This document shows positions 22,301-64,000 of a stretch of DNA of 64,000 nucleotides, one piece after another. Below the pieces are notes generated by a model that saw only the letters and a program-made list of their open reading frames with translations, was not told where the DNA came from and ran no database searches. Made by a program: the position numbers and the translations under genes. The stretch's first letter is position 1; every line of letters begins with the position of its first letter. Source of the stretch: Obrimoposthia wandeli (lineage: Eukaryota); assembly GCA_977020255.1 (NCBI GenBank), contig CDROCS010002607.1:1-64000 (forward strand). The letters are read 5' to 3'.

Positions 22301-25300
22301 ACACGGAACTTAGGGTCACTCAGTGCATTACCCAAAACTTTCATGTTTAGTCAGTGTCACTCATTTATTTTCGTCACAATGAATCTTTCCGATTCTCTTG
22401 GTGTGGTTCTTGGGCATTGGGTTTTGTAGGTGCTACTCTACTTTAAGCAACTTCACCATTGTCACAGGGTTGAATGTGAATATATATGCGATTATCTGTT
22501 GAGCCGCTCGATAAACAACGACATACGTGCAGTTAAACACGCTGTTCTTCATTGCTTCCTGAAAACTGCATTCGTCGCTCTGTTGTCAGATGTCTCATAA
22601 AACATGGGGGCTTCTTTAGATGCAGTCGCGCTCATTTTCATATATTACCCAGACATCGATTTGTATGCTAAAGTCTACACAGTGAAATTATCTACACAAC
22701 TCGTGCAAAGATCCAATTGTCTTGCATTCACATGAGAGCTCGAGTTTATTGCAATGTTTCTTCTCAGAGAAAGATGCGATTTTTATTCTGGTTGTCTAAC
22801 AACGATTAATAGACTTTACAAATCATATAATATTACTTTTTAAAAAACATTGTTTTTGTTGAAAAATTAGAAATGATTGAACCATAAAGCCTAGTTAAAT
22901 TGAAACGTATTGAATTTACAAAGGAAAAGTGTTTGTACTGTGGGCTATATATTCATAAAATATCAGTAAAAGCCTTGCAAAGCTCAAGTCAGACCCCCAC
23001 GCATTTGTGTGTATATGTAGGTTAATTAAGTTAAATGGATCTTTTTAGTCAAGTTACCGTACTAGCAGCTGTATTAAGAGGTAGAAGTATAAGAATTAAT
23101 CAGAATATACCATTTTACATAAAAAGATTTTAAAAATAAAAACTTTTAAATAAAAAAAGGTAAGGGGTATTTTCTTTCTTTGACCTAAGCACTTCGTAAA
23201 TTCCAACTATTGGATAAACAATTCATAACCGGATATCCTTCAGTAGAGCTCGAAAAACTTGGCGTAAACAATGGTCGACGTTGCAACATGCTAAATTACC
23301 ACATCTAGACGAACTTACCCTAATTATACAATGCAGCGGCGATAGATATGGTCGACAATTATGCAAACTTTATAAATAAAACACAGGAATGCTATCCAGA
23401 CGATATTGTTGCTACATCCGTACAAGTTGTCATATGCCGATGTTGTAGTGACAACGGATAGATTGTTGTGATCTACTACTCGACTTGAACTCCTTCATTC
23501 CCATTTATGTAGCCAAGGGAATTTGCTTCCAAGTTTTTGAAACTGTAGATACTCATCTTCCTTTCCTTCGAAGATCCACTACCTACTTCTTTATCTCGAC
23601 TTCCAATTCAGTTCAGTAACTATTCTTTTTTCTCGGGTCCTTTAATGGTTGTCCTTCATTCAACATTTCCTTATGTTTCCCCATCCTTGAAATCTGCTCT
23701 CCCCACCATTTTATATTTATGTTGTCTTAACTTCAGCAAGTCTTACCATTTCCAGCTTCCTGCTCTGTATAACATTGTCTGGTCGTTTATTATCCATATG
23801 GCTGTGAAACGGGACTGATAATTCATATGTTATTTTGAAATAACTTCAATGATTAAATTAATAAAAATCCTTTTTAGAAAAGATGATATTTTGTTATTGC
23901 GCGTTATATATCGTATCAGCAAGTCACAAACACAAAATTTTAGGGTATTACAAATGTTGTAAGGAAAAAATATAACATTTCTCTCAAGTGTGGAAATAAT
24001 TTTATTATTTTACAATCTTATTGAACTATTTTCCATTGATGCATTTAACAAATCCAAACTGTGGCAAGAGTTCATTTATCTTCATCGTATTACTTGTAGA
24101 AATACCAACTTACAATTTTTTCTACGTTGAAAAAAGCTGTTCCATCTAAATCCAGTTAGATATTTTCGTTATTGATTAATAATACAGAAAAACTCCATAA
24201 TTTGATCTCTGCTTGAACCTACTTCTGAAATGTTTTAATATGGTAACTACGCTCTCTAATTTATTCCTTTTTATAAATAAAAATTAAAGAGAATAATGCA
24301 AGATCTAAAATTTAAAGACATGTAAAATTATAAAGTTATCATTAATAAATTGTTTTGTTGTTTTGGATATTTTAGGCGGACAATTTTTTTTAAAATTTAT
24401 TAATATATTGTGTATGGTATATAATTCATTCAAAAAGAAATACATGTTACCATAGTAAAAGAATAAATTAAGAAAATCGAGAAACAAATTGAAAAAATGA
24501 GAATTTTTTTCTACATCATCAGTAAATACCCCTTGGAAATATAGAAATAAGTCCCTAAAGTCAAAGAGAGGTCAAAGTTCAAAACAGACAAAATAAGGGC
24601 TGTCATTATCGAGGGATATATTGACTACTTCAATGGGAAAGGTATAAAAGAAGGGCTGTCATTATCGAGGGATATGTTGACTACTGCAATGGGAAAGGTA
24701 CAAAAGAAGGGCTGTCATTATCGAGATATGTTGACTACTTCAATGGGAAAGGTACAAAAGAAGGGCTGTCAATATCGAGGGATATGTTGACTACTTCAAT
24801 AGGAAAGGTACAAAAGAAGGGCTGTCATTATCGAGAGATATGTTGACTTCTTCAATGGGAAAGGTACAAAAGAAGGGCTGTCATTATCGAGAGGTATGTT
24901 GACTTCTTCAATGGGAAAGGTACAAAAGAAGGGCTGTCTTTATCGAGGGATATGTTGACTTCTTCAATGGGAAAAGTACAAATGAAGGGCTGTCATTATC
25001 GAGGGATATGTTGACTACTTCAATAGGAAAGGTACAAAAGAAGGGCTGTCATTATCGAGGGATATGTTGACTACTTCAATGGGAAAGGTGAAAAAAAAGG
25101 GCTGACATTATCGAGGGATATGTTGACTTCTTCAATGGGAAAGGTACAAAAGAAGGGCTGTCATTATCGAGGGATATGTTAGTAGGTGGATGTGTCCGGT
25201 CTAATCCACACCCCCTCCCCCATTGTTCTTTAAAACCGTGCATGTGTGTGGAGTGAAATTTCGTGTAGGTGTGTGGAGTGAAATTTCACTCCACACACAT

Positions 25301-28300
25301 GCACGGTTTTAAAGGACAAGGGGGGAGTACCCCCCCCTAAAAAAAGAAGGGTTCGGGACCGACATTGGTCACAGACTAGTCCTGCGATGTACGGATATCT
25401 CGTTCTCATATAGGTCACAGACTAGCTTGGCGATGTACGGATGTATCGCTCTCACACCACACCACACCACATCACGCCACACCACGCNNNNNNNNNNNNN
25501 NNNNNNNNNNNNNNNNNNNNNNNNNNNNNNNNNNNNNNNNNNNNNNNNNNNNNNNNNNNNNNNNNNNNNNNNNNNNNNNNNNNNNNNNNNNNNNNNNNNN
25601 NNNNNNNNNNNNNNNNNNNNNNNNNNNNNNNNNNNNNNNNNNCCCTCCACCCGCCCTTTCGGGCGGGCTCTATTCTCACGAAAATAACTACAAAACATGC
25701 GCTACAGTATCACTTTACCTCTCACAACTACAAATGTAAACGACCCGAGTCATACCCTAACATACACCACCCGCCCCTTCGGGGCGGGCTTCATTTTTGA
25801 TCTATAGGCACAAAAAAAACATTACAAAAATTATTTGTCGGCTCCTCGGATATAAAATTCGTTCTTATTGTAAGTAAAATTTGGAACTGCCTTTTCTATT
25901 TTCTGTTTAAGATATTGAAAATCAGGTTTTTGAATACCTGATAGATAGTAGCTGAACTTTCTTCTTTCAATTGTCACAGGATTTACTAAAGCAATCAGTT
26001 GAGCCTTCTTCAAGAATCTGACTTTGTATTTGAAATATTGTTTCACTTCTTCATACATATCCTTAACCGATTCTTCAAACATTTCTTCGTCATCGCTTAA
26101 TACCCGTTGGCTATCGTCCATCGTTGATAATTGTCTTTGATATGAATGCATTTACTGTGATTTGTCTTCCAATGGCGCATTCTTTTATACTAATTTCTAA
26201 CAAAATATATCATCCAATTATAATAGGTTTGCAAGATAATTACAAGAAACGTGCAATAAAAAAGCAGGTTCAGACATATATAAAGAAGATTTTACAGAAT
26301 ACAATTTCAGTCTAATGAAACTCGTAAATTATAAAGGTAGAACAGAAGATGATGTTTCGTACTTACCATTCAATGAATGGAAGCCGAGACAATATGTAGA
26401 AAAGTTTGACAATTTCACAGTTGTTATTTTTCCTACAGGTTAGTTTTTTATTTTATTTTTATATTGAATTCTTTAGGAAATTGTCGTGTTATGGGATGCA
26501 AAATACCAATGCTTGGGTTCAATTTACCATTTGGAATTCAAATCACTGCAATACAATCAATCACGATTTCGGCTAATCTCGGGAAACAGATAAATCTTTT
26601 TAAAACTGCAGATAAAATAAAAGAAGAATGCATGTTTGAACCAGAAATTTTTCCTGCTCTCAGTTATTTGAAGTTTAAACCGCTATGTGTAAATATATTT
26701 TCCAGTGGTAAAGTTATGATATTGGGATTGAAAAATTGTGATTATCCAGACATAGTTGATTTGATTTTAGAAAATATATCTTATTACATCTTGTTATCTT
26801 TTTTCTATAAACAAACCCCGTTTAAACTTATTGTTTCAAATGAATAATACTATAAATAGAGACAATGAAGTGGATCGGCTTGCCGATGAAATATTTTCTG
26901 GAAAAATTAGGGGTAAAGAAATTTTATCAGAATTAAAAAATAATGATATAACAAGAGATAACATTCAAATATTGGTTAGATCACACGTTATTCGAGAATT
27001 TAGAAATCGTACACAAATAAATAAAATTATAGCCAAATATTCATTAATTAATTTTTGTATTTCATCTACAATAGCTCTAACATTGTACATTTCAATAAGG
27101 AAACTTCTATGATAATATAAACAATATTAAAAATGAAAGAGTATATGCAATGGAGCTGAATAATAATGCTGTATTTCAAATAGTTGGCCCAAGTGGAAGT
27201 GGAAAGACACATTTCGTCTGTAAATTGTTGCAAAATGAATCTCTTTTCAAATCTAGTTTCAAAAATATTTATTGGCATCATGGTGGAGGAGGGAAAGGGT
27301 TAACCAAAACAGAAGTTTGCAAGTTGAAGGGTATAAGATTTATTGAAGGATTTGATGCAAATTGGTGTGAAAGATTGAAAAAAGAAGATGTAATAATAAT
27401 TGATGATTTGTATGAGGAGGATAACAAGGAATCGGACTTAATAATTTATTTACAAAGATTGCAAGACATCGTGAAGTTACAGTTATATTTATCACTCAAA
27501 ATCTGTTTCACCAAGGAGGTCACCATAGAACAAGAAATCTTAATGTACATTACTTAGTTTTATTTAAAAATCCTAGAGATCATACAGTTGTTGATTTTGT
27601 GGCCAGACAGGCATTTCCTCTAAATAAGAACTTTCTAGTTGATTCATTCCACGATGCTGCTAAACAAGCACATGGGTATATATTTATTGACTTTACACAA
27701 GCTTGCCCAGATGATTTACGTGTTTTAACAGACATATTTAATTCTAAGGGAGTAACTGTTTATAAACAAATAGAAAACAATTATAAAAAATAAATTCGCA
27801 ATGCCTTTTACAAAGTTGATACTAAAACGTAAAGTAAAATCTAAGAAATCATAAAAAAGAATCATTAAGAAAAAAGAAGTGAAAAAATTAATCAAATCTG
27901 TAGTTAAAAATAAAAAAAACTTAAATGGCTTCGAATATAACAATATTTAAATTGAACCTCTTTTATTAAAATGAAGAAAATACAAAGAAGCATACCCTAT
28001 TTTAAAGCTTTAGTCAAAGCCTCTTCTAATAAGAGAATGATTATTCTTAAAGCATTTCCATCTTTTGTTGTAGATGATTTATTGGAAGTTTTGTATAATA
28101 TAGTTTTGGGTCGAGTAAAAGTTGAAAATCGGAAAAATATATTAAAGAAATATAGAAAAACTCTTCTAGATATTGCTAATGTAAAAAGTAAAAAAAGGAA
28201 ACGAAATATTATTCTTAAACAGAATGGTGGTTTCATAGGGGCTGTTATTCCAGTTGTTGCTTCAATTATCAGTAGTATTATATACACGTTCATAAACAAT

Positions 28301-31300
28301 TATTTCTAAAATCAGCTAAAGATATGGGTGCTAGCCCTTCTTTACCTGAACTTAAATTTTCTTTCTATTCAAATTGTTGTAATGGAGAAGATATGGTTCA
28401 ATCCAAAAGATCCAATTGGCTACACAGGAGTTTCAAAATTAGCAAAAAGAACAAAACAAAATTACAAGAAAACGCAGAAATGGCTGAGTGACCAGTTAGC
28501 CTACAGTCTGAACAAGCCGATGAGAAGAAGGTTTCCAACTAGAGCTTACAAAACCAGCGGTCCTAATAATTTATGGCAAATGGATTTGATGGATATGATC
28601 CCATATTCTTCCATTAATAAGGGATATCGATATATTTTAACATGTATTGATGTATTTAGCAGGTTTGCTCGTGCAATTCCAGTTAAAGCAAAGTCTTCAA
28701 TAGCTATGCTTGAAGCCATTAAAGAAATATTAAAAGAGGACATTCCACAAAATGTGCAAACTGATTTAGGAAACGAATTTTATAATAAGCTAGTTCAATC
28801 ATTATTTAAATAAAATAATATAAATCATTACTCTGTGTTTTCACAATACAAAGCAGCAGTAGTAGAAAGATTTAATCGTACTCTAAGAGATCGAATAAAA
28901 AAGTATTTCACAAAAGAAGGAAATAAAAAATGGATCCAAGTTTTACCTAAAATAATACATGCATATAATCACTCTGAACATAGAGAACAATTAGGGAATG
29001 AGACCTGTTGATGTTACTAATAAAAACTCTATGGACATTTGGATGAACAGGAATAAAAAAGATAAAATTAAAAAAGCTAAATATAAGAAAAACGAATATG
29101 TTCGAATTTCGAAAATTAGCTCTACTCCATTTATTAAAAACTTTGATCAGAATTGGAGCGATGAAATATTTTGTAAAAGTAAAATTGATCAAAAGAGTAA
29201 TCCAATAATGAATACTATTAAAGATGCTGACATTAATATCGTTCACGGTAAATTTTACGAGCAAGAACTACAAGTAATATCAAATAAACCTATCGTTTTC
29301 CGTATTCAAAAAATATTAAAATCTAAGGGTACAGGTAAACATAAACAATACTTTGTTAAATGGCATGGTTATTCAGACCCAACTTGGATATCAGCATCTA
29401 ATATAATATGAATTCTATGTATATGGTTTTACCAAGTAACGGATGTCCGAAGACTCAACCAGATAATGACGTTAGTAGCTTTATTATCGATTGGGAAAAT
29501 TCTATAAATCTCCAAGGAGAATGGGAAGCGGCTTTAACAGAATTTTCCTTTTATTATTCTCCAATTACTATCAAAAAAAACTCACATATTTCGTTTACAA
29601 AAGAAGTTGATCATGAAAAAACAACTGAAGTTGTGATCGGGTTTGATAGTAAAGGACAATTCTATTACAATTGTATAGATAAAGAAGTGAAAGTAATATT
29701 TGAAAATAACAAAGTCAGATTTAAAAATCGATTAAAATTTCTTCAAGTTATTAAAATTAATTTTGAATCTAAAAAAGAAGCTCTTCAATTCAGTTTTGAT
29801 AGTGAACAAACAGTAGCTCGTAATAAACGGGATATTATCTCATCTAATTCGGTTAGAAATGTTCCTGGTAGAGTAGCAAAAGTGTTGTTACTTGAAACGA
29901 GACCAAAGACTGTAGTGGAACTGAAAACGTTTTCAAAAGATTATAAAATAGATAGTGAAGTGAATTTCTATAAATTAATACAGAAGGAATGTAGTGAATA
30001 TTTGGATATATGTGAAACATTAAATGGTAAATTAACGTTTACAGTAAAGAGCAATATAAAACGAGTTTCATTTGATGATAAACTCGCTAAAAACCTTGGT
30101 TTAAACAGAAATACCTTTGAAACCCATACAATAAAAACCATAAAAGCTAAAAATAAGGCAAAACTTTTAAATGCTGTTAATCATTTATATATTTATACTA
30201 ATTTAATAGAACCAACGCTTGTAGGAGGACAGCGAGTTCCACTTTTGAGAACAATATGGATATCTAAAAATGAAACTAGAGATGGGGACGCTGTCGGTAT
30301 GTGTATAGATCAACCAATGTATCTTCCAGTTTCTCTCTTTTCTATAAACAATATTGAAGTAAATATTAGAGATGATTCCGGACAACTAAAAGATTTCACG
30401 TACGGGGCCAAGACAAGTTTAACAATACATTTAAGAAAACAAAATGGCGAATCCAGCAATAATTGAAGCTTATAGTCAAAGCCAACAAGGTGGAGAATTA
30501 CCATATTTTGTTGGTAAACAATACGGATCTGGCTGGCTTAGAACATTAGGTAGATTTGCCTTTCCTATTTTAAAGAGACTCGGGCGATTTATATCAAAAT
30601 TAGGAAAGGATTACCTTTCATCTAATGACAATAAACTAATACCAACTTTTAAGAAGCATGCGCTTGATGAACTTGATAATGTTTTACCTGAAGTTGCTAA
30701 TTTGATTAGAAAACGTAAATCAAATAAAAGCCAAGGAGGTAGTGGATTTAAAAGTAAAATGAAGCTAAAAATTAATATAAACAAACGTAAGAAAGTTGAA
30801 GGAACAATGATTGCAAAATGAGTTGCGCCAAAACTGAATTATGTATTTTTGATAAACCGCTTCCACAAGTAGTTGTAGATAATGCTTCCTTTGAAGAAAT
30901 ATTCCTTGTTAACTCAGTTTCAGGAACCACTTTAACCGATTTAGAATTTAATATTAATTTTTCCAATAGCGAGTATTTAGATTTGAATGATACTTTGCTT
31001 TATGTTCAAATAAAAGTATTAAATCGGGATGGTACTAATTTAGATGAAAATGCCGATGTAACACCTGTAAATTATCTATTTAATTCTTTATTTAATGATG
31101 CCATTATTACTCTTAATAATGTCAAAATTGAAGGTGGAAATTCTTCCTATGCTCATAAAGCTTTGATTGAAAGTCTTTTGAATTATAGTACTGATACTCA
31201 AAATACTAATTTGGCAACCATTGGTTATGATAAAACTGATGCAACTCACAAAGAATGGATTGCAGGTTCTAAAGCTTACGAAATGTGTGGGTCTTTGAAA

Positions 31301-34300
31301 TTGAATTTCTTTGAACAACCGAAATATTTAATTCCCGGTGTTAATGTACATCTTCGTTTGAAACGTAATAAATGGAATTTTTCTTTGATAAGCACGGACA
31401 TTCTAAAACCTAGACTTGATATTTTGGATGCAAAATTGTATGTTCGAAGAGTTAAAACCGAGCAATCAGTTTTAATGGCACATAATATAGGAATGGAAAA
31501 AAACAATGCTTGTTATCCTATTAGAGAAACTAAACTTATATCTTATTCTTTAGGTACGGGTACACAAGCTTTTAATAAGGATCAAATTTTTGGTGATGTA
31601 AGATTACCGAAATTCATTTTAATTTCTTTTCAAAAAACTGCAAATTTCTAGGAAATTATACGACAGATGCAACTCAATTTGACAATCTTAATTTTGGTTC
31701 AGTGACACTTTCAAGAAATACTGATTATCGTGAAACATATGAAACAGATTTCGAAGGTAACGCTTATGCTTTGGCTTATACCCAATCTATTATTCGAAAT
31801 TTGGGTCAACTAGATAAAAATATAAACAATGGTATTTCTTTCACTGATTTTAAAAACAGCTGCCCGTTCTTCACATTTGTTTTGGCACCAGACTTTGATA
31901 TAAACCAATGCCAACTACCAAAGGATGGAAATTTACGACTAGAAATTAAGTTCAATGCAGCTTTGACAAATCCTACTACGGTGCTTATTTACGGAGTATT
32001 TGATTCGGAAATACAAATCAATAAAAACAGAACTGTCATATTATAGAATGGAGTAAGACATATTTTAAATTTATATTTATTAATTTTTATTTAGTTCAAA
32101 ACAAGTAAAAGAATCAGCAGAGAAGGTCCTGGGTGATAAATTCAATGGAGTTTATCCTATTGATATGATTCCATTTTTTCAATCTGGAGGTTACATTATC
32201 AATACTCATACTTCGAATTTACCAGGAGAACATTGGATAGCTATTTATGTTAGAGAGTGGACAATACATGTATTTGATCCACTTGCAATGTATTATCCAC
32301 ACAAACTTGTTTCAACTATTCAAAAAGGACGAAGAAGAGTATTTTACAACAAGATACAATATCAGGATCCTGCGACGAGAAACTGTGGACATTTATGTAT
32401 TCTATGGTTATCGTTGCAAAACGATTAGTGTGTTATAAAAATAAAAAATTTAAATGTTTTATTTTGAATTATTTTTTAAATCTCTAAAAATTTAAGGGTA
32501 AAATAATAAAATACATAAGACAATTTTTTTAATACATTTATTAATCACAACATCACAATGAGATATGTCAGCAAAGATAAGGCATAATAAATAAGGTCCA
32601 TCCTAAAAAAGTATTGAAATAACAAATAAGTTAGAGTCTAGGTGCCATAGGGATCTAAAATTTTAAAAATCTAAACTAAAAAAATCAAAAAATGAAAACC
32701 GTTTAAATTCTGAAGTGTCCATAAGCCAGGCTAGCGTTCTTTTCTACCCAAAAGCGCTTGTCGTCATTACTACTCAACGCGATTTTGGTTGATTTATGGG
32801 AATACAGTTGATGGGCTCTTGAAATAAATCTAGTTTGCTCAACGCTTTCAATACACCCAGTATCATAAACTTTCCGGTAGGCCTCATGTGTAAGATTGTT
32901 TCTTCCCACACCCTTTGCTCTCATTGAACATGTATTATTAGATGCATGTAAACTGTAGCATTTAGGGCGTAGGAAAATACAATCATCATACGAAACCTGT
33001 CCCTCGCTTTCATCCTTAAATATCCCGATAATGTCCTTTAAACTCATAGAGTGTAGAGGATGGTTAGCGGGATATTTATGGGTATCTAGTAAGTTGTCCC
33101 TAAACATTGCTGGTAATAATTGATTATTTAAACTAACATTCCTACATTCTAAAAAGAAAGAGTCAGTGTCCCCAGCTGCGATTTTAATCTCACAATTAAA
33201 TTCTTGTCGGTATTTCTCCAATTCTATGTATTGAAGCTCATACATTCTGAGTTTAGAAATGTCTAAAACCGTTTGACCTATATATCTCGGTCGATCGAGA
33301 CAAATACTCTGTTTTCCTAATAACACTGCTACCAAGTCATCTGCAATTGTAAAACTACGCTTGAAGTTGTACTTGCTAGTATATGTTATTAGTTTACGCT
33401 CATCATTGCAAAACCGTAGACAAATACGTTTCCGCAAGTCCTCTACAGTTTTTCCAAAGAGACTATTACTTTTTAACTTGTAAAAATCTCGATCGAATTT
33501 GCTAGTGGCCAAATTACGTTTTCTTGAATTCTTCTCAATATAGTCTTTAAACACAAAGTTTTGACTGAAGCTTATAGCACGATGAATTCGAGTAACTTTC
33601 GCTCCCAACTTTATGTAGAATTGATGAAGCCGCCAATGCACAACATAATTCAACTTGTCTTTATGGGTTAACAATAATTTCTTAACCTTTGAATTAGGTG
33701 GGTATTGATGAACAGGCGCTACTGGAAGATCATCTAATTTATCATGCACATTGGGAGGGATTTTTATGTCCACCTCAACCAAATAGCCTACGTCGGATGA
33801 AACTGTATCAACAGTAGCCAAATCTGTCATTAACTTATTCAACTTATCCACATCATAAACCAATTTAAAGTTGGCATGAGGTAGAGGTTGAGTAAGCGCC
33901 CACCCATACAAATTATTAATATCGATGTACAGAATCTCCGTGGATTAATTTTTGACAACATGATGTTTGTTGACAAAAGTCATTCCACCGCGTATACCAT
34001 AATCATACATTTGATACATCGCGGGATCTTGCAGTAACTCGATATTAATTTTAAGAGTTTTTATTGCTGTTGCCCATGAAAGACCAGGTAAACTAAAGAA
34101 ATGCATGGGATCTAGCCCATCTTCTGCTAAAGACTTTACACGAAAGGACTCAAAAACATCAGCTAAAAGATAAATGTCTAACTTCATATAATAAAGCATA
34201 TATTCGAGAAGATTTGACAATTATTCACCCAAAATGTACGGGCCTCATTATAGTCTTGAAGACTTACACCCTCAAATTCAGTTATGGGTGGGATTTCAGT

Positions 34301-37300
34301 TGTATTTTCTAAATCTGTGAAAGTTTTCGCAAATTTATACGGAAAAATCCCCTTATCGTTAACCGAAGCTGGGAACACTGACTGTGTAATTGGCCATGCA
34401 TTTAAAGATGCCGTTAAATTTTTTAAAAACCCGCTCAAAAACTGCAGAGAATCTATGAATCTTAAACTGCAGAATTTAGTATATGCAGTAAAAGATAAAT
34501 ATTTCTCTGAAATTTGAGGTATACATGAAATTTCCCAAGAGCTTAATGTACCCAACGCGTATTTAAGTATATGATGCAAATCATATCCTTTGAGGTTATG
34601 AAACACGATGGGAATGCGTGGTTTTTTAGGGAGACGACGGCCAAGGTTACAAAGGTTGCACGCCGCTCCCAAGTATCGCCCCGTAACATGATCGTGATCT
34701 CTGACTAACTTAGACTGGGTTCCACACAAATAACATAATCTACAAGAATTAAAATTAACCCAGTCTATGCCTGTCATGATCATTGCTTGATGAGCATTGA
34801 GATCATACCACGGTTTGACAATTGTTGTTCCTAATTCCTCTAATTTTAACATAAAATCTAAAATACAATTTGGACAATAAAATTTATGATACTAGGTAAT
34901 ATTGGGGCCTAAGAATAGTAGTCCTGCCGAAGCCGGTAGGTGAATACTCTCATACTGGTCGTGCAATGCTAAAATTGACTCAAAATCTGCATACACTCTG
35001 AATTCCACGGGTATGCATTTTGCCCAATCCCTGAATTTTAAATCCTTATCCTTAGGCATGCTATATAGCGTATTGTCATCAGGATTCAGTGAACATAATG
35101 TCAGATGTTTGTTGTAAGAGAGCTCGGATCGGAACCCATGCAAACATCTATGACACCACTTACACCTTATCCTAACCGGTAAGGCTCCATTATCTAAATT
35201 TAGAAGACGATCTAAACTGGGAATTGCAGCATAATGGAATTTATTATTATGTTCGAGCAAAATTAAGTTGACCTGAGTCCCCTCATTTTTGCTTCTATAA
35301 ATTACATTTACAAAAGGATTTTTAAAAATTTCTTTTGATCTGTTACATTTACTGGGATATCAGTATTATATTTGTTTTATTTATTTATCTATTTTATTTA
35401 TTTATTTATCAAACATTTATTAATGTGAATGCAATCAATTTCTCAAAGGCCCCATAGGGGCCTCTTCTACTTTACGTAGGTCCGGGTCTCAATATGCTGC
35501 TGGTCCTCGGTAGCAGTAACAGTAGCTGCTTGGGGTCTCGGTTTCGTTATTGGAACTTTGAGTAGGTCCGCGTACTTTTTCAGTACTATTACGTCATCGT
35601 CGGGTACAGTTTTGGGCCCCTCGGCAGTCTCGATTGTAGCGGGGCCACCTTTTCGGCCATTACCCGTAACCGACCGCAGGTCGGTTTTCGGGTACGATTT
35701 CTCCTCCTGTCCATGTCGAGAACAAAGCTAACATCGTGAATTCTAACTAGAGTCCATCCACTACTTAACTCGCTATAATTAGCAATTTTTTCATCCAGGT
35801 TTCTTCCAATTTCAGTTACAAAATTATCATAAAAAACAGTTGCTTTATGTGAAATTACCCAAGTTTTAGTTTCCTCATTGACATTTTTAAACTGCACTGT
35901 TACGCAAAATTGAACCTTAGCCTGTCCTAATTTAGTCACTTCTGATTTTAAAAGATTTTCAATATTTGAATCTACACCTACGTTTAATAAAATTTCATTT
36001 CCTAATGGCACCTTAACTATAACATATTTATTATTTAGGTGATACTCTATAGTAGCACCGTTTTCTCTACGTTTTTTTGGTGGGACCTTATTAAGAAATT
36101 GGCCTCGCCTCTTTCTTCCGTTTGTCGCTGACAAACCTCCCCCTAATTGAACGGGAAGACAACTATTTATATTAATAGTTGACACAATCGCAGCTGAGGT
36201 TGAAGGTGCTGCCATTGGACATGCTGCCGATGTTGAGGCAATCGCAGCTGGTGTAGACGATGCTGCTGGAATAGATGCTGCCGCAGATGTAGAGGCTGCA
36301 TTTGAAGCTGACCTTGCCGATGAAGAAGCGGCTGTTGTAGAGGTTAGTGCTGCTGAAATAAATATAATAAAAAATAAATATATTTTTAAAAATTACCTCT
36401 AAGGCGTGCTAACATCGATGGGGGAGGAATAGCTGTCCTATCAGATGACGGCTGTATCATGGTACTTCCTGAATAAAAAATAAAAAATATATAATAAAAA
36501 TAAAATATATAATTTAAAAATAATAATAAAAAATACCTAATGAAGGCAATCCAAGTTGAGCTGGAATGAAGTCCTCTTCATTGACGAAATCCATCCAGCT
36601 GTCGTCCGACATGTCGACGAAATCGGATTCCTCGATGGTCTCCAACCACGAGTTATCGCTCCACTGCTCTATCTCGAAATCTGACTGGTATATGTCATTC
36701 ATCCACTCATTGTTAGACATTTGAGTGGATGGGTCAGAATCAGGAGCCGGGAGACCAATTGCAGGACCGTAAAAGGGTTGATCAACTGCAACTGGAATTG
36801 GAGGTGGAGCGACCTGTGAATCGCGCACCAATTGGACGATATCCCTCTTCTTGTTGATGGCCGTGAAACACGATAGATGAGCTCGATGTTCACTGAAGAA
36901 GTCTCGAAACTCCTTCTCCTCCATTGTTCTGCAGAAGGGGCAGACGAAGAACAGAACACCTTGAGACTTTGTCCGGTAGTATGCAGACATTGTCTCCATG
37001 CAGGTCTCTCCTCCATGTGGAGTCGAAGCACCACAATACGCAGGGAATAGGTTACAAGTAATCTGAAATAATAAATATTAATAAGGAAATAATAAAAATA
37101 AATTCTTACCATAGGCATTATTTCAAATTGTCGGGGATTTAAATGAAAAAAGTGTTTGCTTATATACTAAAATTTATGCACACATGCTCTTTTCCTATTG
37201 GATTAAAAAATTGAGAAGGTTTGTTTATCTGTTAAATGGTCGAAAAAAATATTTTTTTATTCCTCCAATCAAAATATTTAATTGTAATTGAATGAAAATT

Positions 37301-40300
37301 ATGAATTAGAAGAATTGTTTATCTACATGTCAAGTAATAATAAGAAAGACTTAGACATTTTTTATATGCGCAATGGTCACCATGATTACGATATGGACAG
37401 AAAATATTTCTTGGAATTTTTAATAGATGATCACGTGAAATATTTAAAGTATTCAACCTCAATTTAGGAAAATATTTTTTTAAAGTCATATATTTTTTGC
37501 CATCCATGTCATCTAAAACATAAAAAATTCCATTTTCAATTTCAAAATTAAATTTAATAGTATCGAAAATACATATTTCACAAAAAGCCTTATGTCCTTC
37601 TTTCCATTTTAATAAATGGAAATATTTAGTTAGATATAAATTAGTAAATTTTTTCTTATAATCTAAACTTTTAAATGGGATATCTATATGAAATATGAAA
37701 TGCAAAGGATGAAAAACGTCGCATACATCCATAATACATAATTCTTTTATAATATAATCCCCATTTTTGTTAATGAAAGCCTCAAAATCTATGATATATT
37801 CCTGCATAATTATCTAAATTTGTAGCAAATCCCGTTGTTTATAACGAAGTACTTTCATGTTAAGATTGGAATATTTTGTCAATTCTCCTATGTAACATAA
37901 TCAATAAAGACAAAATAATAATCAAAAATTTATTTTTTTGTAGAAGGACCCTCTTCCGGTTTAATCTGGAGGATTCTCTTTCTTGCTGCTCGCCGAACAT
38001 CCTCCATCTCTTCTCTTCTTTTTTCATCCACCTTCCTTTTTTCCAATTCGATCTTCTTATTCCACTCCACGATTCGACGGCGTTCTGCTAGCCTCCTATC
38101 CTGTATCTCCACCCGATGATTCCACTCTGTCGCGACAGCAGTATACAAATTTTGATTGAGGACCCTCTTTCTTAAGTCCCCTTTCTTCTCATTTATTCTT
38201 ATGTTTGCTTCAATCTTCGTCACCAGACTCTTCATTTTAATGAATTCCATTTTTTAATTATGAAAAGGTTAATAAATTTGAACCTATATATATAAATTAA
38301 AGATATTTTTTAATCCAATTAAATGATATATTTTTATTTATCAAATGAGAGTTTAATAAATCTATAACTTATCATTGTAAATAAACTTAAAGATAGTATT
38401 TCTAAATTTTAAAAAAAAATATTAAGAAGAAAACATATGAAACTAATTTTTATAAATTATATATTTAAACAATTTTACGAAGTCATCATTGGGATCATCC
38501 GGGTCGTAATCCCTCCGACTAAGTATTATAGGAGAAAGCGGTACTGGTTCCTTCTTCTTTGGCCGGCCCGGTTTCTTTTTCGGTTTCACCGGTTGCTGTA
38601 CAGCAATTGTCCTTCCCTCAGGTTTTGGCAATAGTTGCCGCAACTTTTTGGGAGGAGGTGCAGCCGATGTTGATGGTTCCGACGTAGAAGTCCACTTCCG
38701 TGGAGCTTTCTTCTGTTTCTCCTCCTTCTCACGCTGAAGCTGGCGTGAGACGGCATCCTGTTGCCCATGCGAATCTGGAAGCATTGCCGGTGAATCCAGT
38801 TCCGCCCGGAATTCATCCAATCCAGCGTCATCCCAGGCCCTCTTCAAGTTTTGGCTGGTTGTTGGACGAGTAGAAGCAGTCTCCTGCAGGCGTCGTTGAC
38901 TTGAGGGCGGACTTATCTCGATCGGCGAGACTGGGATCCTCTCATATAAGATTGGTCCGTCGTCCACTGGAGATTGGAGAATCTCCTGCTGACCAATCAC
39001 CGTCTCAGAATAATGACCAATTGAGGTTTTACATTTTCTCGAGCGTCTTGTCTTCTTCACCTCTGCCCTCTTCGTCCGTTTCCGCGAGAAAGGAGTAACT
39101 TCTCCCCAAGTCTCCTCAAATATCTGGACGGATTCCTGCAAAATATTAATAAAATTTAAACATATAAATAATTTACCTCAATGATGGGCAGGTTAGCCTG
39201 TTTCCACAACTTGGCCTTCTTCCGCGTGAGGGTTTTGACCCGATGGCGTTGCGGTTTCTTAACTGCCGCTTGCTTCCTATCCACCGGTTGAATAGACGTT
39301 GCCTCTTCGTGAATATTCTCCATCTATATGAATTATTAAATTTAATATCTAAATAATTTACCTTAAAATTATCTGGAGACGCTAGGTATCGGAGCTGACT
39401 CCTTGGCAGCTCCTGGCTGCATTGACTCGCCAAGTACTGCGGTTCAATTAGCCTCTCCACCATGGTCACTGACGGTGCCAAATCCAGTTGAAGTTTCTGA
39501 AAATGAAATTAAAAAAACATTTAAAATAAATGATGTCTAACCTCATTCGTCGGTTTTATTCTCCTAACAGGAGATTTTGGCCTTTTGAATGGTTCAGGCA
39601 TTGTATTATCTGCTTTCGGAGTAGCAGAGGGAGTGCGACCATCCCAATCGTCGGTGAACAGGTGCCACTCGTCCTCGTCCAATTCTGCTACCATCGACTC
39701 GTTGGCTTCAGGGGCTCCGATACTTGGCTGTATCCAGTCGTCGATGAATGGAGTCAAGTCCTCCTCCCAATCCGAAGGTACATCATCGGTGAACAGCTCC
39801 TCGTCTGAGTCTGGTGTGAGGACTTTCTCCGGTTGAGACAGCGGGATCAATTTCCAGGTGCATGTGATTGCCGCCTCAAAATTGTCGAAGAGATTGGATC
39901 TCCCTGCTGCTACTGCTGAAGTTGCCGGACGATTGGGTTTTGTGTTTTGTCTGGGAGTACAGTCTTCCCAATTCTCAATCGAATCCTGACTAGTCAGATC
40001 GATATATTGGGATCTCTGTACCCAACCTCTCACGTCCATTGGTTCTTCTCTTGGAGTTGAGCTGGCCAATGAGGCTTCCAACAGGTTCGTTCTTGCTGCT
40101 GCTTCTCCTTCGCTCACCACCGATGACTCTTGACTATCTAAGTCAATGTATTGCGACGGTGGTGGCGTTCGCTGCTGCACTGGAGAGAGATCCCCATAGA
40201 GTTGAACCTCCGTCTCTTCGTCTAGGTCAACGTTGTTGTAGAATGGCATAGTTGATTTATGAAAAATAATGAACGGAGGTGTCTTTATATACACAAACAT

Positions 40301-43300
40301 CTTACTAACCCTCTTTTATTGTCCAATGAGAGCCTCTTATTCAAATAATTTTTGTAATGTTTTTTTTGTGCCTGTAGATCAAAAATGAAGCCTGCCCCTA
40401 AGGGGCGGGTGGTGTATGTTAGTGTATGACACGGGTCGTTTACATTTGTAGTTGTGAGAGGTAAAGTGATACTGTAGCGCATGTTTTGTAGTTATTTTCG
40501 TGAGAATAGAGCCCGCCCGAAGGGGCGGGTGGAGGGTGGAGTGTTTCGGTGGTGTGGTGTGGCGTGGTGTGGCGTGGTGTGGTATGGCGTGGTGTGGCGT
40601 GGTGTGGTGTGGTGTGGTGTGGTGTGGTGTGGTGTGGTGTGGTGTGGCGTGGTGTGGTGTGAGAGCGAGACATCCGTACATCGCCAAGCTAGTCTGTGAC
40701 CTATATGAAAGCGAGATATCCGTACATCGCCAAGCTAGTCTGTGACCTATATGAGAACGAGATATCCGTACATCGCAGGACTAGTCTGTGACCAATGTCG
40801 GTCCCGTACCCCCCTTGTCCTTTAAAACCGTGCATGTGTGTAGAGTGAAATTTCACTCCACACACCTACACGAAATTTCACTCCACACACATGCACGGTT
40901 TTAAAGGACAAGGGGGAAGGGGGTGTGGATTAGACCGGACACATCCACCTACTTATGTTGACTACTTCAATGGGTAAGGTACAAAAGAAGGGCTGTCATT
41001 ATCGAGGGATATGTTGACTACTTCAATGGGAAAGGTACAAAAGAAGGGCTGACATTATCGAGGTATATGTTGACTTCTTCAATAGGAAAAGTACAAAAGA
41101 AGGGCTGTCATTATCGAGGGATATGTTGACTTCTTCAATTGGAAATCTACAAAAGAAGGGCTGTCATTATCGAGGGATATGTTGACTTCTTCAATGGATA
41201 AGGTACAAAAGAAGGGCTGTCATTATCGAGAGATATGTTGACTACTTCAATGGGAAACGCCCCTGACTTTTAAAATTATTCTTTTATTAGCTTGAAGTCG
41301 TCATTGCCTTAACACATTTATAGGAAGACTATATTAGCAATTTTATATGTAAATTTGAAAATATTGACATCATCAATTTTCTCTAAAAGAGCACCACCGA
41401 ATTTTTTTGTGTGCAGCATAGATAATCTCTGTGATAAAGATAAAGTTTCATTGGCTGTCTCCTGTCCCCTTTGCCAAGAGTACGTTTATGCTCCCAGGTG
41501 TGTGGAAGACGAGAAGTTCAAGTGCCTGCAATACTGGCCGGATGAAATCAATGGCTATGCCAAGTTCGGGTCTAAGAAGGAGCTCAAAGTCACTATGACG
41601 TCAGAAAGATCTCTCGAGAGCCACATTGAACGCGGTCTTCGTGTACTCCACAAGGTAGTTGAATCAGCTGTTGATTTTTACATATTAAATGGCAAAATTA
41701 GAATGTATAAGACGCCATAGTCGCAGCACCGCAACATCGTCAGACATCTTTGAAGTAGTCGCTAAATTCCGGATTATTCTGATTTTCGTAGTCACATTTT
41801 AGGAGAAGAAGTGTCACTTGATAAATTGTCTTTTGGGAAAGCCATAGGTATGGGGAACAAAACCACGTTGCCCCAAACATTCATAGGATTATTTAATCTC
41901 AAGTTAAAATTCTTATGAAAAATGCCAAAGTTTTGAAAAGGTATAAAAGATCAAGACATATTTTAACAATTTCAGAATTTCGTAAGCAGACTGATAACCT
42001 GATGATCTTCTGATTTGAGATGTACTCTTGTTCTCTTACGCGAATGAAAACGCATCAAACATGACATATTCTTCTTTTATATAGTGATGTTTTGTCTGTA
42101 ACGTTTCATAATATTTTTAAGATCAACAAATTAACAAAAATTTTATTATTATTGTTGTAAAATTAAGAAGATAGTACAAGAGTTTGAATTATGCAAAAAT
42201 ATATAAATATTAAAACAACAATACATATACAAACAAGGATTATTTCATCACACCTTCCCCCTTTTCTTCTTTACTGTCTGAATCGAATTGGTTTCTGCCT
42301 CTGTCTTCTAGGATGTTTCTTTTGCGATTGTTCAATCTCGTCTTCTGTTATCAGATCCGGAAGTTCCACAGATTGGGATATTATAGAAGTGGGTGTTTCT
42401 GATTCTGGTGTATTTTCCCCTTCATTTCTTTTAATATGTACCATATTTCTCTCCACTACTTTTTATCTCCAATTCTTTCTAATTGATAAGAGTGTTTCCA
42501 TAACATTTTAAAACTTTATACTGCCCTTCATATCTGGGTTGATCAATTCCTTTAATACCAGGCAGTATTCTCATCATTACCATTTCTCCTTTCTTTAATT
42601 CGTTTGCACATTTCATTTTCTTTGGTACAAATAACTTTGTCTCTTCTCAAGTCATTTTATGAACTTCACTTAATCTCTTCCTAAGTTCGTTTATATACTC
42701 ATTAGCGTTGTTTATTTTCCTTAGTTGCTCATTTTTTGTTTGGAATATAGATTTCATTTTTGCATCCAAGTATTATTTCAAATGGAGATAAACCCGTAAC
42801 TATGTTAGCTGTCATTCTCAAACCCAATTCGACTGTTGGTATAGCTTCTTCCCAATCACATCTTCTAGATTGTGACGTAGCAAATATAATGTCCTTAGCT
42901 GTACCAAATAGCATTTCGATTATTCGATCACCTTGAGGATAGTAGGGTGCGCTTCGTGATTTTCTAATTTCAAACATGGGACAAAATTCATACATTTATT
43001 CATTTTCAAATGATTTCCCTCGATCCGAGTGTATTTTATCAGGGATACCGAAACAACTCATCCATCTTTCGAAGAGATATTTACATATACAAGAAATATA
43101 CAAGCTGACAGAACAAGAAAAAATAGAACATAGAGACTATTGGGTGTATGTATGCATGTATGTCTGAATACTTACAAGAAATACAAGGTATATACACAAG
43201 GATAGAGAAAATAGAGACTATTGGGTGTGTGTATGCATGTATTACTGAATACTTACAAGAAATATACAAAACTTTAATTATTATTAATCATTACATCTCT

Positions 43301-58891: not shown

Positions 58892-60334
58892 CCGTCGTTC
58901 ATTGCTCTGATTGCAGCGTTAGTAATATATATTTTTGCACATATATTTTTTTGTTTGTGCTTCTCATAGTTACAAAGTTTTTTTTGGCAAGAAGCCGAGT
59001 GATAGCAGTGATGCATGTGATAAAAATAGGCGGTGGTTTGACTGCTCACGTAGATCATGGTACGGCACGAGATGGTGTGGTCTTGAGGGTCAAAGTCTTC
59101 GAGTACACCAAAGAAAGCTCCGTCTATATGGATTTTCTATGTGGAATATTTCTAAAACCGTCTATTTAAGTTTTCAGTGTCCAGGTGCTAGCATTTGTTC
59201 AGGAACTACAATTATCTTGTCATTTCTAACATAGTATATTTAACATCCCTTGCATATATTTGGGTAGCATGTTGAACGTCTTTTGTGCTAATGTTGGGGT
59301 TTTTATTTGAAACTAGATCCTTGTATGGAGGCCCCCAACGTGAGTTCTATAGCAATAGGGCTTACAGATGTATGTGGCCTATTTAGGTTTTATTCTATTT
59401 AATTTAGTCTCAAGTCTGAAGGTTTTTTGAGCTAATGTGGTGCGAGATGTGTACAGAGTTGTGTGTACAAGCTACTGAAGGGGTTCCCTTATTGTAGTGC
59501 GATGTGTGGAGGGTTTCTTATTGTCCTAATCCTATGTAGGTTGATCGATCGACTCTACTTGATGTGTAGGAAATATATTTATTTACGCTTGACTAAAAAT
59601 TGCGAAACTGACAATAATTTGTCCTTAACTAAAAGATCTTTCAACTACAATAATTTGTCCGGCTGCACTTGCCTCTACAAGGTTAAACAAGGATGACCCT
59701 GGCCTAGAGTATTGATTTTAAGTCTCATAGTAATTTAAAGATTCGAATTATACGTTCCGTAGTTATTATTTTCCTATTTAACTTCAATTGGTCAATATCA
59801 AATTCAGGCAATCTATTTTTTCAATGAGTCTACTTCAAATAGATATAATGTGTTTAATGTTTCTTTTCACTGAATTTTTTAAAATTGATATAATATGTTT
59901 ACTTTTCAATGAGTCAAAAGTAGGTGGATGTGTCCGGTCTAATCCACACCCTCCCCTTGTCCTTTAAAACCGTGTAGGTGTGTGGAGTGAAATTTCGTGC
60001 AGGTGTGTTGAGTGAAATTTCGTGTATGTGTGTCTCCATTCCACCCAAAGGGGGGAAGGAAGGGGTACTCCCCCACCATATTTGTTAAACTTTTACCATG
60101 AATCTCAAAAGTGGTTAGAGAAGACCACGAGAATCCATATTAACCCCGACGGCTTTTCGCAGACGAGATTTCAAATATTACTACTATTTTTAAGAAACAT
60201 TTTAGATTAATAAATTACTACATGTTAAATATCTATGTCAGTTTTAGAATTTAGAGGAGAAAAATCAGTCAGATCTATATAATTTAGAGGAGCAAAAACA
60301 AAATACGAGACAAAATTATTTTTCAAAATATTTA

Positions 60335-60739
60335 TTAAACATAAAACAACATATTGGCTTCACTCAAAGTCCAGAGAGGCTGCATTTTCCCGTCATCAGC
60401 AAAATATCCATTCAGACGTATTGAGATATTCCATAGTTCTTCATCTAGAATTGGAGCAATCAAATATCCTAGATCATCTTTAAAATCCAGACTGGGATCA
60501 GTTTCAAGCTCGAAACAATTTCCTTCATATACATAATCAGGAATGTAAAATCCCAAAATATTTTTCAGTTGATCAAAATCAGTTGTTGTTAAAATTTCGA
60601 TGAGATATTTTTTCTCCACTTTTGATATTTTTACAGAATTCATAATTCGTATAATTTGATGCCTCTTTAATATATTACATAGTTTTCCTTTTGAAATTCT
60701 TTCTGGATAATAAACATTTGCTACACATCTCTTATCCAT
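60335..60739 (-). CDS. Polinton hypothetical protein paralog B (about 134 aa from MDKRC)
   Basis: Colinear similarity to 60873-61349. Confidence 0.65.
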   Translation of the reverse strand: MDKRCVANVYYPERISKGKLCNILKRHQIIRIMNSVKISKVEKKYLIEILTTTDFDQLKNILGFYIPDYVYEGNCFELETDPSLDFKDDLGYLIAPILDEELWNISIRLNGYFADDGKMQPLWTLSEANMLFYV

Positions 60740-60872
60740 TCTAAAATAAGGAAACTGATTAAAAACAATGTTTATAAAAAATACACATAAGATACAAATA
60801 AGATACAAATAAAACTGATTATTAAATGAAAGAAACATAGTAAAACCGATTACAATTTATTATACACAAAAG

Positions 60873-61349
60873 TTAAAACATATAAATATGAGCACGTTCA
60901 ATTTTCCACATAGGCAACTTTGTTCCCATTTCATCTTTCTTGTAACCATAAAGTCGAATTGTTAGAGTCCATTGCTTCTTTTTCGGAAACGCATCAATAT
61001 CAACATATCTTCTATAGTCATCTAGAAATGCTTCATCGGCTCCTCGGATATAAAATTCGTTCTTATTGAAAGTAAAATTCGGAACTGCCTTTTCTATTTT
61101 CTGTTTAAGATATTGAAAATCAGGTTTTTGAATACCTGATAGATAGTAGCTGAACTTTCTTCTTTCAATTGTCACAGGATTTACTAAAGCAATCAGTTGA
61201 GCCTTCTTCAAGAATCTGACTTTGTATTTGAAATATTGTTTCACTTCTTCATACATATCCTTATCCGATTCTTCAAACATTTCTTCGTCATCGCTTAATA
61301 CCCGTTGGCTATCATCCATTGTTGATAATTGTCTTTGATATGAATGCAT
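60873..61349 (-). CDS. Polinton hypothetical protein paralog A (158 aa)
   Basis: Intact ORF with upstream TATAAAAAG; truncated homolog in copy 1. Confidence 0.75.
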   Translation of the reverse strand: MHSYQRQLSTMDDSQRVLSDDEEMFEESDKDMYEEVKQYFKYKVRFLKKAQLIALVNPVTIERRKFSYYLSGIQKPDFQYLKQKIEKAVPNFTFNKNEFYIRGADEAFLDDYRRYVDIDAFPKKKQWTLTIRLYGYKKDEMGTKLPMWKIERAHIYMF

Positions 61350-61571
61350 TTACTGTGATTTGTCCTCCAATGGCGCATTCTTTTATACTAATTTCTAACG
61401 AAGACTTTCATTCAAAAAGAATTTCATTGGTTAATATAACTAAAGCATTGAATTTGATTAGACTAAATCTATATTAAAAATCAAAATTGATTGGAAGAAA
61501 TATATCATCCAATTATAACAGGTTTGCAAGATAATTACAAGAAACGTGCAATAAAAAAGCAGGTTCAGACA

Positions 61572-61606
61572 TATATAAAAAAGATTTTACAGAATACAAT
61601 TTCAGT
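61572..61606 (+). promoter_or_regulatory. TATA box plus TCAGT initiator of the TBP-like gene
   Basis: TATATAAAAA at 61572 and TCAGT at 61602, ATG at 61610; same layout at 26277, 26307 and 26315. Confidence 0.6.
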
Positions 61607-61609
61607 CTA

Positions 61610-62148
61610 ATGAAACTCGTAAATATAAATTATAAAGGTAGAACAGAAGATGATGTTTCGTACTTACCATTCAATGAATGGAAGCCGAGACAATATGTAG
61701 AAAAGTTTGACAATTTCACAGTTGTTATTTTTCCTACAGGTTAGTTTTTTATTTTATTTTTATATTGAATTCTTTAGGAAATTGTCGTGTTATGGGATGC
61801 AAAATACCAATGCTTGGGTTCAATTTACCATTTGGAATTCGAATCACTGCAATACAATCAATCACGATTTCGGCTAATCTCGGGAAACAGATAAATCTTT
61901 TTAAAACTGCAGAGAAAATGAAAGAAGAATGCATGTTTGAACCAGAAAATTTTCCTGCTCTCAGTTATTTGAAGTTTAAACCGCTATGTGTAAATATATT
62001 TTCCAGTGGTAAAGTTATGATATTGGGATTGAAAAATTTTGATTATCCAGACATAGTTGATTTGATTTTAGAAAATATATCTTATTACATCTTGTTATCT
62101 TTTTTCTATAAACAAACCCCGTTTAAACTTATTGTTTCAAATGAATAA
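61610..62148 (+). CDS. TBP-like protein, 166 aa, join(61610-61739,61778-62148)
   Basis: Same 38-nt intron and open spliced frame as copy 1; N-terminus MKLVNINYKG. Confidence 0.8.
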
Positions 62149-62413
62149 TACTATAAATAGAGACAATGAAGTGGATCGGCTTGCCGATGAAATATTTTCT
62201 GGAAAAATTAGGGGTAAAGAAATTTTATCAGAATTAAAAAATAATGATATAACAAGAGTTAACATTGAAATATTGGTTAGATCACACGTTATTCGAGAAT
62301 TTAGAAATCGTACACAAATAAATAAAATTATAGCCAAATATTCATTAATTAATTTTTGTATTTCATCTACAATAGCTCTAACATTGTACATTTCAATAAG
62401 GAAACTTCTATGA
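62132..62413 (+). CDS. Hypothetical protein with C-terminal hydrophobic segment
   Basis: Near-identical to 26831-27112. Confidence 0.6.
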   Translation: MFQMNNTINRDNEVDRLADEIFSGKIRGKEILSELKNNDITRVNIEILVRSHVIREFRNRTQINKIIAKYSLINFCISSTIALTLYISIRKLL

Positions 62414-62450
62414 TAATATAAACAATATTAAAAATGAAAGAGTATATGCA

Positions 62451-63098: not shown

Positions 63099-63277
63099 AT
63101 TCGCAATGTCTTTTACAAAGTTGATAGTAAAACGTAAATTAAAATCTAAGAAATCAAAAAAAAGAATCATTAATAAAAAAGAAGTGTAAAAATTAATCAA
63201 ATCTGTAGATAAAAATAAAAAAAAACTTAAATGGCTTCGAATATAAACAATATTTAAATTGAACCTTTTTTATTAAA

Positions 63278-63607: not shown

Positions 63608-63635
63608 ACAATTATTTCTAAAATCAGCTAAAGAT

Positions 63636-63854: not shown

Positions 63855-64000
63855 AGCTTACAAAACCAACGGTCCTAATAATTTATGGCAAATGGATTTG
63901 ATGGAGATAATCCCATATTCTTCCATTAATAAAGTATTGATGTTTTTAGCAGGTTTGCTCGTGCAATTCCAGTTAAAGCAAAGTCTTCAATAGCTATGCT
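63694..64000 (+). pseudogene. Integrase 5' part, disrupted
   Basis: TGG to TAG at codon 5, CAG to TAG, and an approximately 22-nt deletion relative to copy 1. Confidence 0.88.

Follow-up and report, generated by a model that had tools for sequence, protein, structure and literature searches.

How do the Maverick (Polinton) elements of animals turn on their capsid genes, and do they need a helper virus to do so, as virophages do? This question is raised by a locus in Obrimoposthia wandeli, a stretch of 64,000 nucleotides (contig CDROCS010002607.1, positions 1 to 64,000; hereafter the window) that holds a complete element of a family we call A and part of a second copy. The element is a Maverick/Polinton by its ends, its 6-bp target-site duplication and its core genes, and both copies carry a small gene that resembles the one for TATA-binding protein (TBP). 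Judged by its sequence, this gene is a member of the TBP family that is carried by a Polinton and stands outside the standard core genes, in agreement with an earlier reading of the window made from the sequence alone (the sequence-only reading). We think it probable that the shortened Maverick TBP binds an 8-bp box of the element, TATAAACA, and recruits the host TFIIB and RNA polymerase II, and that it thus acts as a late switch for the capsid, packaging and integrase genes.

The TBP-like gene, its predicted intron and its history

The sequence-only reading had described a TBP-like gene with a 38-nt intron and products of 164 and 166 amino acids, and the coordinates and quoted motifs are present. 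In the first copy, an ATG at 26315 opens 41 codons up to a GT at 26439, and the frame resumes after an AG at 26476; the spliced products, with X at the junction, have 164 aa in this copy and 166 aa in copy 2. However, the quoted first-strand motif belongs to copy 2 and not to the first copy, in which a 6-nt in-frame deletion hits the conserved first strand (exon 1 has 124 nt there and 130 nt in the other 30 of the 31 genomic copies). Copy 2 has FEPENFPAL; the polar residue in it stands at a position that is L or I in 118 of 119 relatives.

The expected match to the TBP family (PF00352; curated cut-off, 22.9 bits) was found in both copies, with exon 2 scoring 44.6 bits (E 1.3e-11) and 46.3 bits (E 3.8e-12). 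Exon 1 alone gave no TBP match in the Pfam scan. The intronless gene of L044, a near-complete intact module, scored 65.2 bits (E 4.9e-18) over two stretches. All 35 of the 35 PDB sequences matched were TBPs or TBP fusions, and the hhalign probability was 99.5. For the two-repeat saddle layout of TBP, sequence profiles indicate a clear repeat 2 and a shortened repeat 1.

We predict from homology that the intron is spliced by the host, because intronless homologs match the junction, a second element has an intron at the identical site, and the GT..AG ends are kept among copies. Seven full-length database homologs are continuous over the junction, one of them with identical residues on either side, and exon 1 and the start of P0006 are 64% identical. 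The second element, L048, whose protein is 52% identical, has a different GT..AG intron of 40 nt at that site, and the GT..AG ends are kept in 28 of the 31 genomic copies. Among close metagenome loci the intron is present in just 1 of 29, a count that comes from a search in which one of two patterns spans the exon junction and which thus favors intronless genes. The intron-bearing genes of family A and L048 both lie within an open fork of the tree, which bears on a single intron origin. In contigs from four runs of unrecorded type, none of the 15 joints listed lies over the intron, a result that says nothing on expression.

A phylogeny with host and archaeal TBPs, which had been proposed as a check, placed the Maverick TBPs apart from both. 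In this quick tree (60 rows; midpoint root only), 11 Maverick rows and 13 database rows lie on one side of a branch with 99% SH-aLRT support, and 15 host, protist, archaeal and IMG/VR rows lie on the other. Because the tree groups Maverick TBPs apart from host TBPs, the gene appears, on sequence grounds, to be old within the elements and not a fresh capture from the present host.

TBP-like ORFs had also been proposed for a search in other Mavericks, and they are widespread there. An alignment search returned 686 proteins at E<=1e-5, which may include cellular TBPs; the best 120 of these 686 matches are all compact (136-213 aa), and a representative library contains 60 clusters at E<=1e-30. Of the 29 close metagenome loci, 12 also have matches to the ATPase, putative capsid or exonuclease-like genes of the window; the others are short contigs. 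A second Maverick family in the host genome, family B, has an intronless TBP-like gene that is 52% identical to that of family A (L106:8787-9257, L108:9001-9465 and L112:8437-8862). Family B looks young, with many copies whose PolB frames exceed 1,200 aa; its TBP-like gene is directly 5' of the ATPase and back to back with PolB, and the family has the same boxes. No relatives came up when IMG/VR was scanned with capsid and ATPase queries, and the IMG/VR TBP scan found one TBP, of canonical type (L031). A wider set of divergent compact TBPs (P0259-P0402) keeps the Arg-x-Met-Gly signature of repeat 1 and in the tree is a neighbor of the Maverick group; of 150 hits, about 13 begin at the signature Met, as second exons would.

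The sequence-only reading had seen something special in a gene that is intact while its neighbors are broken. This does not survive a comparison of the genomic copies. The whole frame and both splice sites are kept in 7 of 31 copies, both window copies have a lesion at a position conserved in the family, and pN/pS over the 31 copies is 1.03 in exon 1 and 0.86 in the exon 2 core. Exon 1 is intact in 30 of 31 copies, the exon 2 core in 26 of 31 and the ATPase in 14 of 28, but 30 loci were chosen by likeness to the TBP gene, so that intactness is biased in its favor and the contrast with the ATPase pN/pS of 0.30 is unfair. Because the gene is short and the copies were picked by likeness, their intactness does not indicate selection by the host. 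We considered and rejected selection on the TBP gene within the genome: the copies decay neutrally, and those in the window are probably decaying insertions, not working genes. Between diverged elements, in contrast, the family is under purifying selection: dN/dS is 0.13-0.35 in 11 of 13 pairs, and of the remaining two, one is near-identical (1.14) and the other is without synonymous change.

These results make it extremely improbable that the gene derives from a host TBP gene by recent capture or domestication and owes its intactness to host selection. The presence of an intron and the open frame in both window copies would fit such an origin. However, the family is separate from host TBPs in the tree, the short introns of the host TBP genes (47 and 48 nt) are at other positions than the Maverick intron, the copies decay neutrally, and the same genome has an intronless homolog in family B.

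The promoter box and a TBP-less control

TATAAACA is one letter away from a TATA box. It was observed 54 times, as compared with 16.7 expected, in 18 loci (the window and 17 of the 29 metagenome loci, 12 near-duplicates having been dropped; 78,624 bases). If simple runs are set aside, no 8-mer ranks higher, and of the 16 TATAAANN words it alone is clearly enriched. Shuffle tests gave 17 versus 6.2 in the window and 10 versus 1.9 in L044, and no shuffle reached either count. Where a box has a downstream gene, 22 of 49 are 25-60 nt before the ATG (background 3.6%) and none is closer than 25 nt. For other words this spacing was found in 5 of 24 cases (TATAAATA), 0 of 32 (AATAAATA) and 0 of 7 (AATAAACA).

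The box is found upstream of particular classes of genes. Counting boxes up to 150 nt upstream, we found it before the ATPase (8/8), the major capsid (6/6), the small ORF that precedes the capsid (7/7), the core protein (6/7) and the exonuclease-like gene (6/7). It is upstream of PolB in 0 of 3 cases, with starts that are uncertain, and of TBP genes in 0 of 19. No box in reverse orientation was found in the virion-module classes. In the first family A copy, the box has moved to the minus strand together with the inverted exonuclease-like gene; the box of the core-like gene has lost one base in this copy and is whole in copy 2 (63242-63249). Of the 19 TBP genes in L032-L056, 14 have upstream an initiator-like TCATWA, for the most part 7-17 nt ahead of the ATG, and 8 a TATAWAWR box.

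We give little credence to the possibility that TATAAACA signals the 3' end or the polyadenylation of the gene upstream of it, with the TBP-like gene having an unrelated role, for example at the element ends. In this compact genome many boxes are near a stop codon, some overlapping it, and TATAAA resembles AATAAA. But several boxes are 43-103 nt before the stop of the gene that contains them, and the next ATG follows at 35-45 or about 100 nt; no box comes within 25 nt of an ATG, a spacing that AATAAACA and AATAAATA do not share, and the box traveled with the inverted exonuclease-like gene.

A promoter role for the box in elements that carry the TBP gene is also consistent with a control. Another family of this genome, family D, is distant and Polinton-like; its matches are to ATPase, pX-like and integrase proteins and, weakly, to a protease. 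Two TBP profiles run on 16 family D stretches gave a single hit, which lies within an inserted family A element. Over 63,575 aligned bases of family D (8 copies), TATAAACA was observed 10 times and 14.7 were expected. In the TBP-bearing elements the ratio is about fourfold (observed/expected 8/2.0 in family A, 9/2.4 in family B and 10/2.5 in L044), and window DNA outside the two family A copies has 5 observed and 5.1 expected. The contrast with family D fits a link between the box and the TBP gene. Family D is located at L102:5701-10000 and L103:1-8100, with T/A-rich stretches 5' of its genes.

A shortened TBP with an altered DNA face

We aligned 119 of 124 family proteins, dropping five without the first motif. 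Yeast numbering was set on L061 and agrees with PMC1636458 and with Table 1 of PMC12529657. The family core has a median of 150 aa. Three of the four intercalating phenylalanines of canonical TBP are kept (F116 in 119, F190 in 118 and F207 in 119 of the 119 relatives), as are P191 (109) and, in all 119, the acidic stirrup (E/D186 and E188) that in canonical TBP meets TFIIB, a likeness at the level of residues. The canonical hydrophobic DNA face with N69 and N159 is not found: the near-invariant changes are V122R (119), T124M (119), N159S (117), V161T/S (117), I194R (118), V203C (119) and L205N (119). The first Asn of the first strand (118/119) is read as N69 by analogy with repeat 2, and the second (119/119) as V71, a V71N change that we leave outside the firm list.

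Repeat 1 is shortened by about 10 residues before F116 and by 13 after G125 (median 21 versus 34). The latter residues are lost where, we take it, the second helix of repeat 1 is located in cellular TBP, and host regulators (TFIIA, Mot1, TAF1 and Brf1) presumably dock on the surface at that helix. Positions 194, 203 and 205 are those altered in the yeast mutant TBPm3, which accepts TGTA, and repeat 1 of TBP contacts the 3' half of the box.

We postulate the following sequence of events. The TBP-like gene would be made early, from an ordinary promoter of host type, and spliced by the host; we propose the early promoter because the TBP gene never carries the box. The small TBP would then bind TATAAACA at the virion and integrase genes, where its polar DNA face, and above all the invariant Arg at the position of V122, may read the C in the 3' half of the box. 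The kept acidic stirrup would bind TFIIB and so bring polymerase II, whereas the docking surface for TFIIA, Mot1, TAF1 and Brf1 would be gone with the roughly 13 residues missing at the second helix of repeat 1. More broadly, and only tentatively, we suspect that a widespread lineage of animal Polintons has a late switch of one protein, in which a 150-residue TBP has shed the surface for host regulators and acquired a new DNA code for TATAAACA, and brings host TFIIB and polymerase II to the virion genes.

Several observations weigh against this reading. The best stretches in Pfam and the PDB span repeat 2 only, and repeat 1 was placed by the register of motifs and a global hhalign alignment, with low confidence in the first columns. 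There is no conserved phenylalanine in the register of F99 in the 119 relatives, and at position 194 family A has S, N or T, not the near-invariant R, in 31 of 31 copies yet keeps the same box. The Atlas recognition value is 2029, below the mark of 2300. The exact box precedes the integrase in 3 of 7 cases and the minor capsid in 3 of 7 (6 of 7 each with one-off variants) and the protease in 0 of 5, and two rows of the gene-class count are copies of family B. Over 8 elements the pairwise identities of TBP and ATPase are uncorrelated (rho 0.26, p 0.19). As a control, family D is a single lineage, distant and decayed, with 8 copies that are 74-93% identical and a polymerase that Pfam did not confirm.

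Could a host factor read the box instead? A host TBP, a paralogue or a Forkhead protein might do so, and the small TBP would then act as a decoy or a repressor, either by titrating TFIIB or by blocking promoters of early genes or of the host. A Forkhead site resembles ATAAACA. The host has at least four TBP-family genes besides that of the element, TATAAACA is one position off a TATA box, and the invariance of the TFIIB stirrup in a protein with a heavily changed DNA face and no F99 is what such a decoy might look like. We nevertheless find this rather unlikely. The box is strictly on the gene strand and at a TATA-like distance, GTAAACA on either strand precedes just 2 virion-class genes, the TBP-less family of the same host has no enrichment, and a decoy would need no near-invariant new residues on its DNA face. 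The sequence-only reading had left the choice between an own basal factor and a decoy of host TBP; because there are a matching promoter box and a TBP-less control, the sequences favor an own factor over a decoy.

Cellular TBP and its paralogues (yeast 1rm1/1ytb, human 29vf_O and archaeal 1mp9) have in common with the Maverick protein, by alignment, the two-repeat layout, F116/F190/F207, P191, N69 and the acidic stirrup at 186/188. The Maverick protein differs in its size (about 150 aa), in being without an N-terminal tail, in its shorter repeat 1, in the absence of F99 and in the seven near-invariant changes of the DNA face, and it is far below the NCBIfam TBP cut-offs. The TBP mimic of beta- and gammaherpesviruses, for example ORF24 of KSHV (compared by its published description only), is similarly a viral factor of TBP fold with a polar DNA face. 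According to the part of PMC12529657 available, ORF24 serves late promoters with a non-standard box, TATTWAA, together with host polymerase II; has 752 aa and works in a complex of six proteins; keeps four phenylalanines, all required; lacks the acidic TFIIB residues; and also has polar residues at V122, V161 and L205. The Maverick protein, in contrast, is a bare core (median 150 aa versus 752 aa) that keeps the acidic residues and loses F99. It is thus not a herpesvirus vTBP (ORF24/UL87/BcRF1), though by analogy it likely works like one.

Other virus-borne TBPs have been noted. In the accessible parts of the respective papers, ASFV pB263R is a TBP homolog with a proposed role in viral transcription (PMC5825884), and mirusvirus-like elements carry TBP-like genes (PMC10675990). 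These belong to large viruses, whereas the scan of the window ORFs turned up no gene for an RNA polymerase. Many large DNA viruses encode their own RNA polymerase. It is conceivable that the box and the small TBP work for the polymerase of a large DNA virus that co-infects the host, as promoter motifs of virophages are thought to, but we consider this very unlikely. Promoter motifs of endogenous virophages implicate giant-virus partners (PMC8547959, in the part available), and the Atlas neighbor cluster at 0.95 is mostly Nucleocytoviricota, which is a lead only. On the other hand, two diverged elements have a GT..AG intron in their TBP gene, and intron-like stretches precede accessory genes of relatives, both of which point to nuclear polymerase II and the spliceosome; and the Maverick TBPs are on one side of the 99% branch, apart from the sole IMG/VR TBP included. 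A switch that works with the host polymerase II remains our preferred reading.

The gene had been put forward as a candidate for an undescribed system, which holds in part. In the open literature searched, we found no description of the TBP family or the box for Polintons, Mavericks or adintoviruses, except for the legend of Fig. 5 in Starrett et al. 2021 (PMC8502044, available in part), which labels a TBP-like gene in a MELD virus with an adintovirus-like PolB; subscription papers, Repbase and figures were mostly outside the scope of this search. That virus, like the present element, is of middle size and of the Polinton neighborhood, and the entry is a legend label, without analysis of family, residues, promoter or intron in the part available; TBP was not found in one supplement of that paper. 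The same open literature held, by title, no paper on a TATAAACA promoter in these elements, and no paper on how host TBP handles C at position 7. The vertebrate Mavericks described by Barreat and Katzourakis 2021 (PMC8097293) likewise have inverted ends, a 6-bp duplication and a polymerase module facing a virion/integrase module, but in the part available there are eight intronless core genes, and "TBP" and "TATA" occur 0 times in the main text.

The element and its surroundings

The coordinates of the family A element are given in the table below. That the gene is carried by a Polinton, as had been claimed, is borne out by a complete element with inverted ends and a duplication; the arms are 88-97% complementary, with termini AGTAG/CTACT. 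In Pfam, the core of the first copy has PolB (PF03175, E 1.2e-7) and integrase (PF00665, E 4.5e-10) matches, both in broken frames, and its ATPase, integrase, capsid and polymerase frames are split; the Pox_A32 match of the ATPase (E 1.2e-6) is in copy 2. The capsid candidates are conserved ORFs of fitting size and place, without a Pfam or NCBIfam match.

Features of the family A element and its second copy in the window
Feature	Position (strand)	Remarks
Target-site duplication, 6 bp	left 25175..25180 (+)	identical hexamer at 40954-40959
Family A Maverick/Polinton, complete copy	25181..40953	15.8 kb; inside 56-bp satellite; ends 5'-AG...CT-3'
Terminal inverted repeats	left 25181..25837, right 40342-40953	left arm partly N
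Conventional TATA box TATATAAA	26277..26284 (+)	38 nt 5' of TBP-like start; candidate early promoter
TBP-like gene, exon 1	26315..26438 (+)	shortened repeat 1 to F116-equivalent turn; 6-nt in-frame deletion
Intron of TBP-like gene	26439..26476 (+)	38 nt, GT..AG, phase 1; predicted to be spliced
TBP-like gene, exon 2	26477..26847 (+)	end of repeat 1, short linker, full repeat 2; tail overlaps next promoter box
TATAAACA box	26806..26813 (+)	precedes small ORF at 26842
TATAAACA box	27116..27123 (+)	34 nt 5' of packaging ATPase
A32-like packaging ATPase	27150..27793 (+)	frameshifted in this copy
TATAAACA box	27761..27768 (+)	precedes short basic ORF starting near 27801
Basic core-like protein	27972..28309 (+)	weak Adeno_PX match, E 0.02
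One-off box CATAAACA	28291..28298 (+)	precedes integrase region; second at 29340-29347, precedes putative minor capsid
rve integrase with chromodomain	28310..29411 (+)	broken
Putative minor capsid	29408..30466 (+)	by position and similarity to L044; without Pfam match
TATAAACA box	30343..30350 (+)	within putative minor capsid frame; 101 nt 5' of small ORF at 30444
TATAAACA box	30776..30783 (+)	42 nt 5' of putative major capsid gene
Putative major capsid	30818..32046 (+)	two frames; by position and size; without Pfam match
Adenain-like protease	32084..32428 (+)	weak Peptidase_C5 match, E 0.036
Protein-primed family B DNA polymerase	32703..36392 (-)	split over several frames
Conserved 160-aa ORF, exonuclease-like by eye only	37319..37807 (-)	inverted relative to relatives
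TATAAACA box of exonuclease-like ORF	37836-37843 (-)	
Second family A copy	59919..64000 (+)	continues past window end
Second TBP-like gene copy	61610..62148 (+)	intron 61740-61777

The 56-bp tandem satellite flanks the element at 24588-25180 and 40954-41365, and a short non-autonomous piece with one Maverick end and polymerase fragments is located at 19694-21204. A genome search scored 40 matches of 636 candidates, with identities of 96-100%. First-look candidates in the host genome number 19,768 for PF00352 and 24,442 for PF03175, which are not copy numbers; the stretches examined are full of nested Mavericks, and these elements may fill a large share of the host genome.

The host itself (L076, L077, L078/L081, L079 and L080) has two back-to-back canonical-like TBP genes with the 47- and 48-nt introns, one divergent spliced TBP paralogue and, at about 210 aa, two divergent paralogues without introns. 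Several loci (L033, L035, L037, L041, L045, L048 and L060) have GT..AG intron-like stretches of 40-50 nt 5' of small accessory genes that adjoin the TBP gene, one example of such a gene being a Cys/His-rich ORF of 105 aa. Near the TBP gene there are also a ubiquitin-conjugating-enzyme ORF (L044:225-722, E 1.7e-12) and a RING-finger ORF (L048:1665-2168, E 1.8e-6).

For the question of how animal Mavericks turn on their capsid genes, the finding provides a candidate for the factor and another for its 8-bp target, and the box gives a way to locate gene starts in these elements. If our reading is correct, one small protein would be enough for a 15-kb element to reprogram the basal machinery, a task for which herpesviruses use six, and this would be the smallest viral pre-initiation system known. 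The protein would be a natural TBP of altered specificity, changed at the three TBPm3 positions, and together with its box a naturally orthogonal TBP-promoter pair and a tool for the study of TBP-DNA recognition. For the elements themselves, it would be evidence of an autonomous cycle with early and late phases that needs no helper virus.

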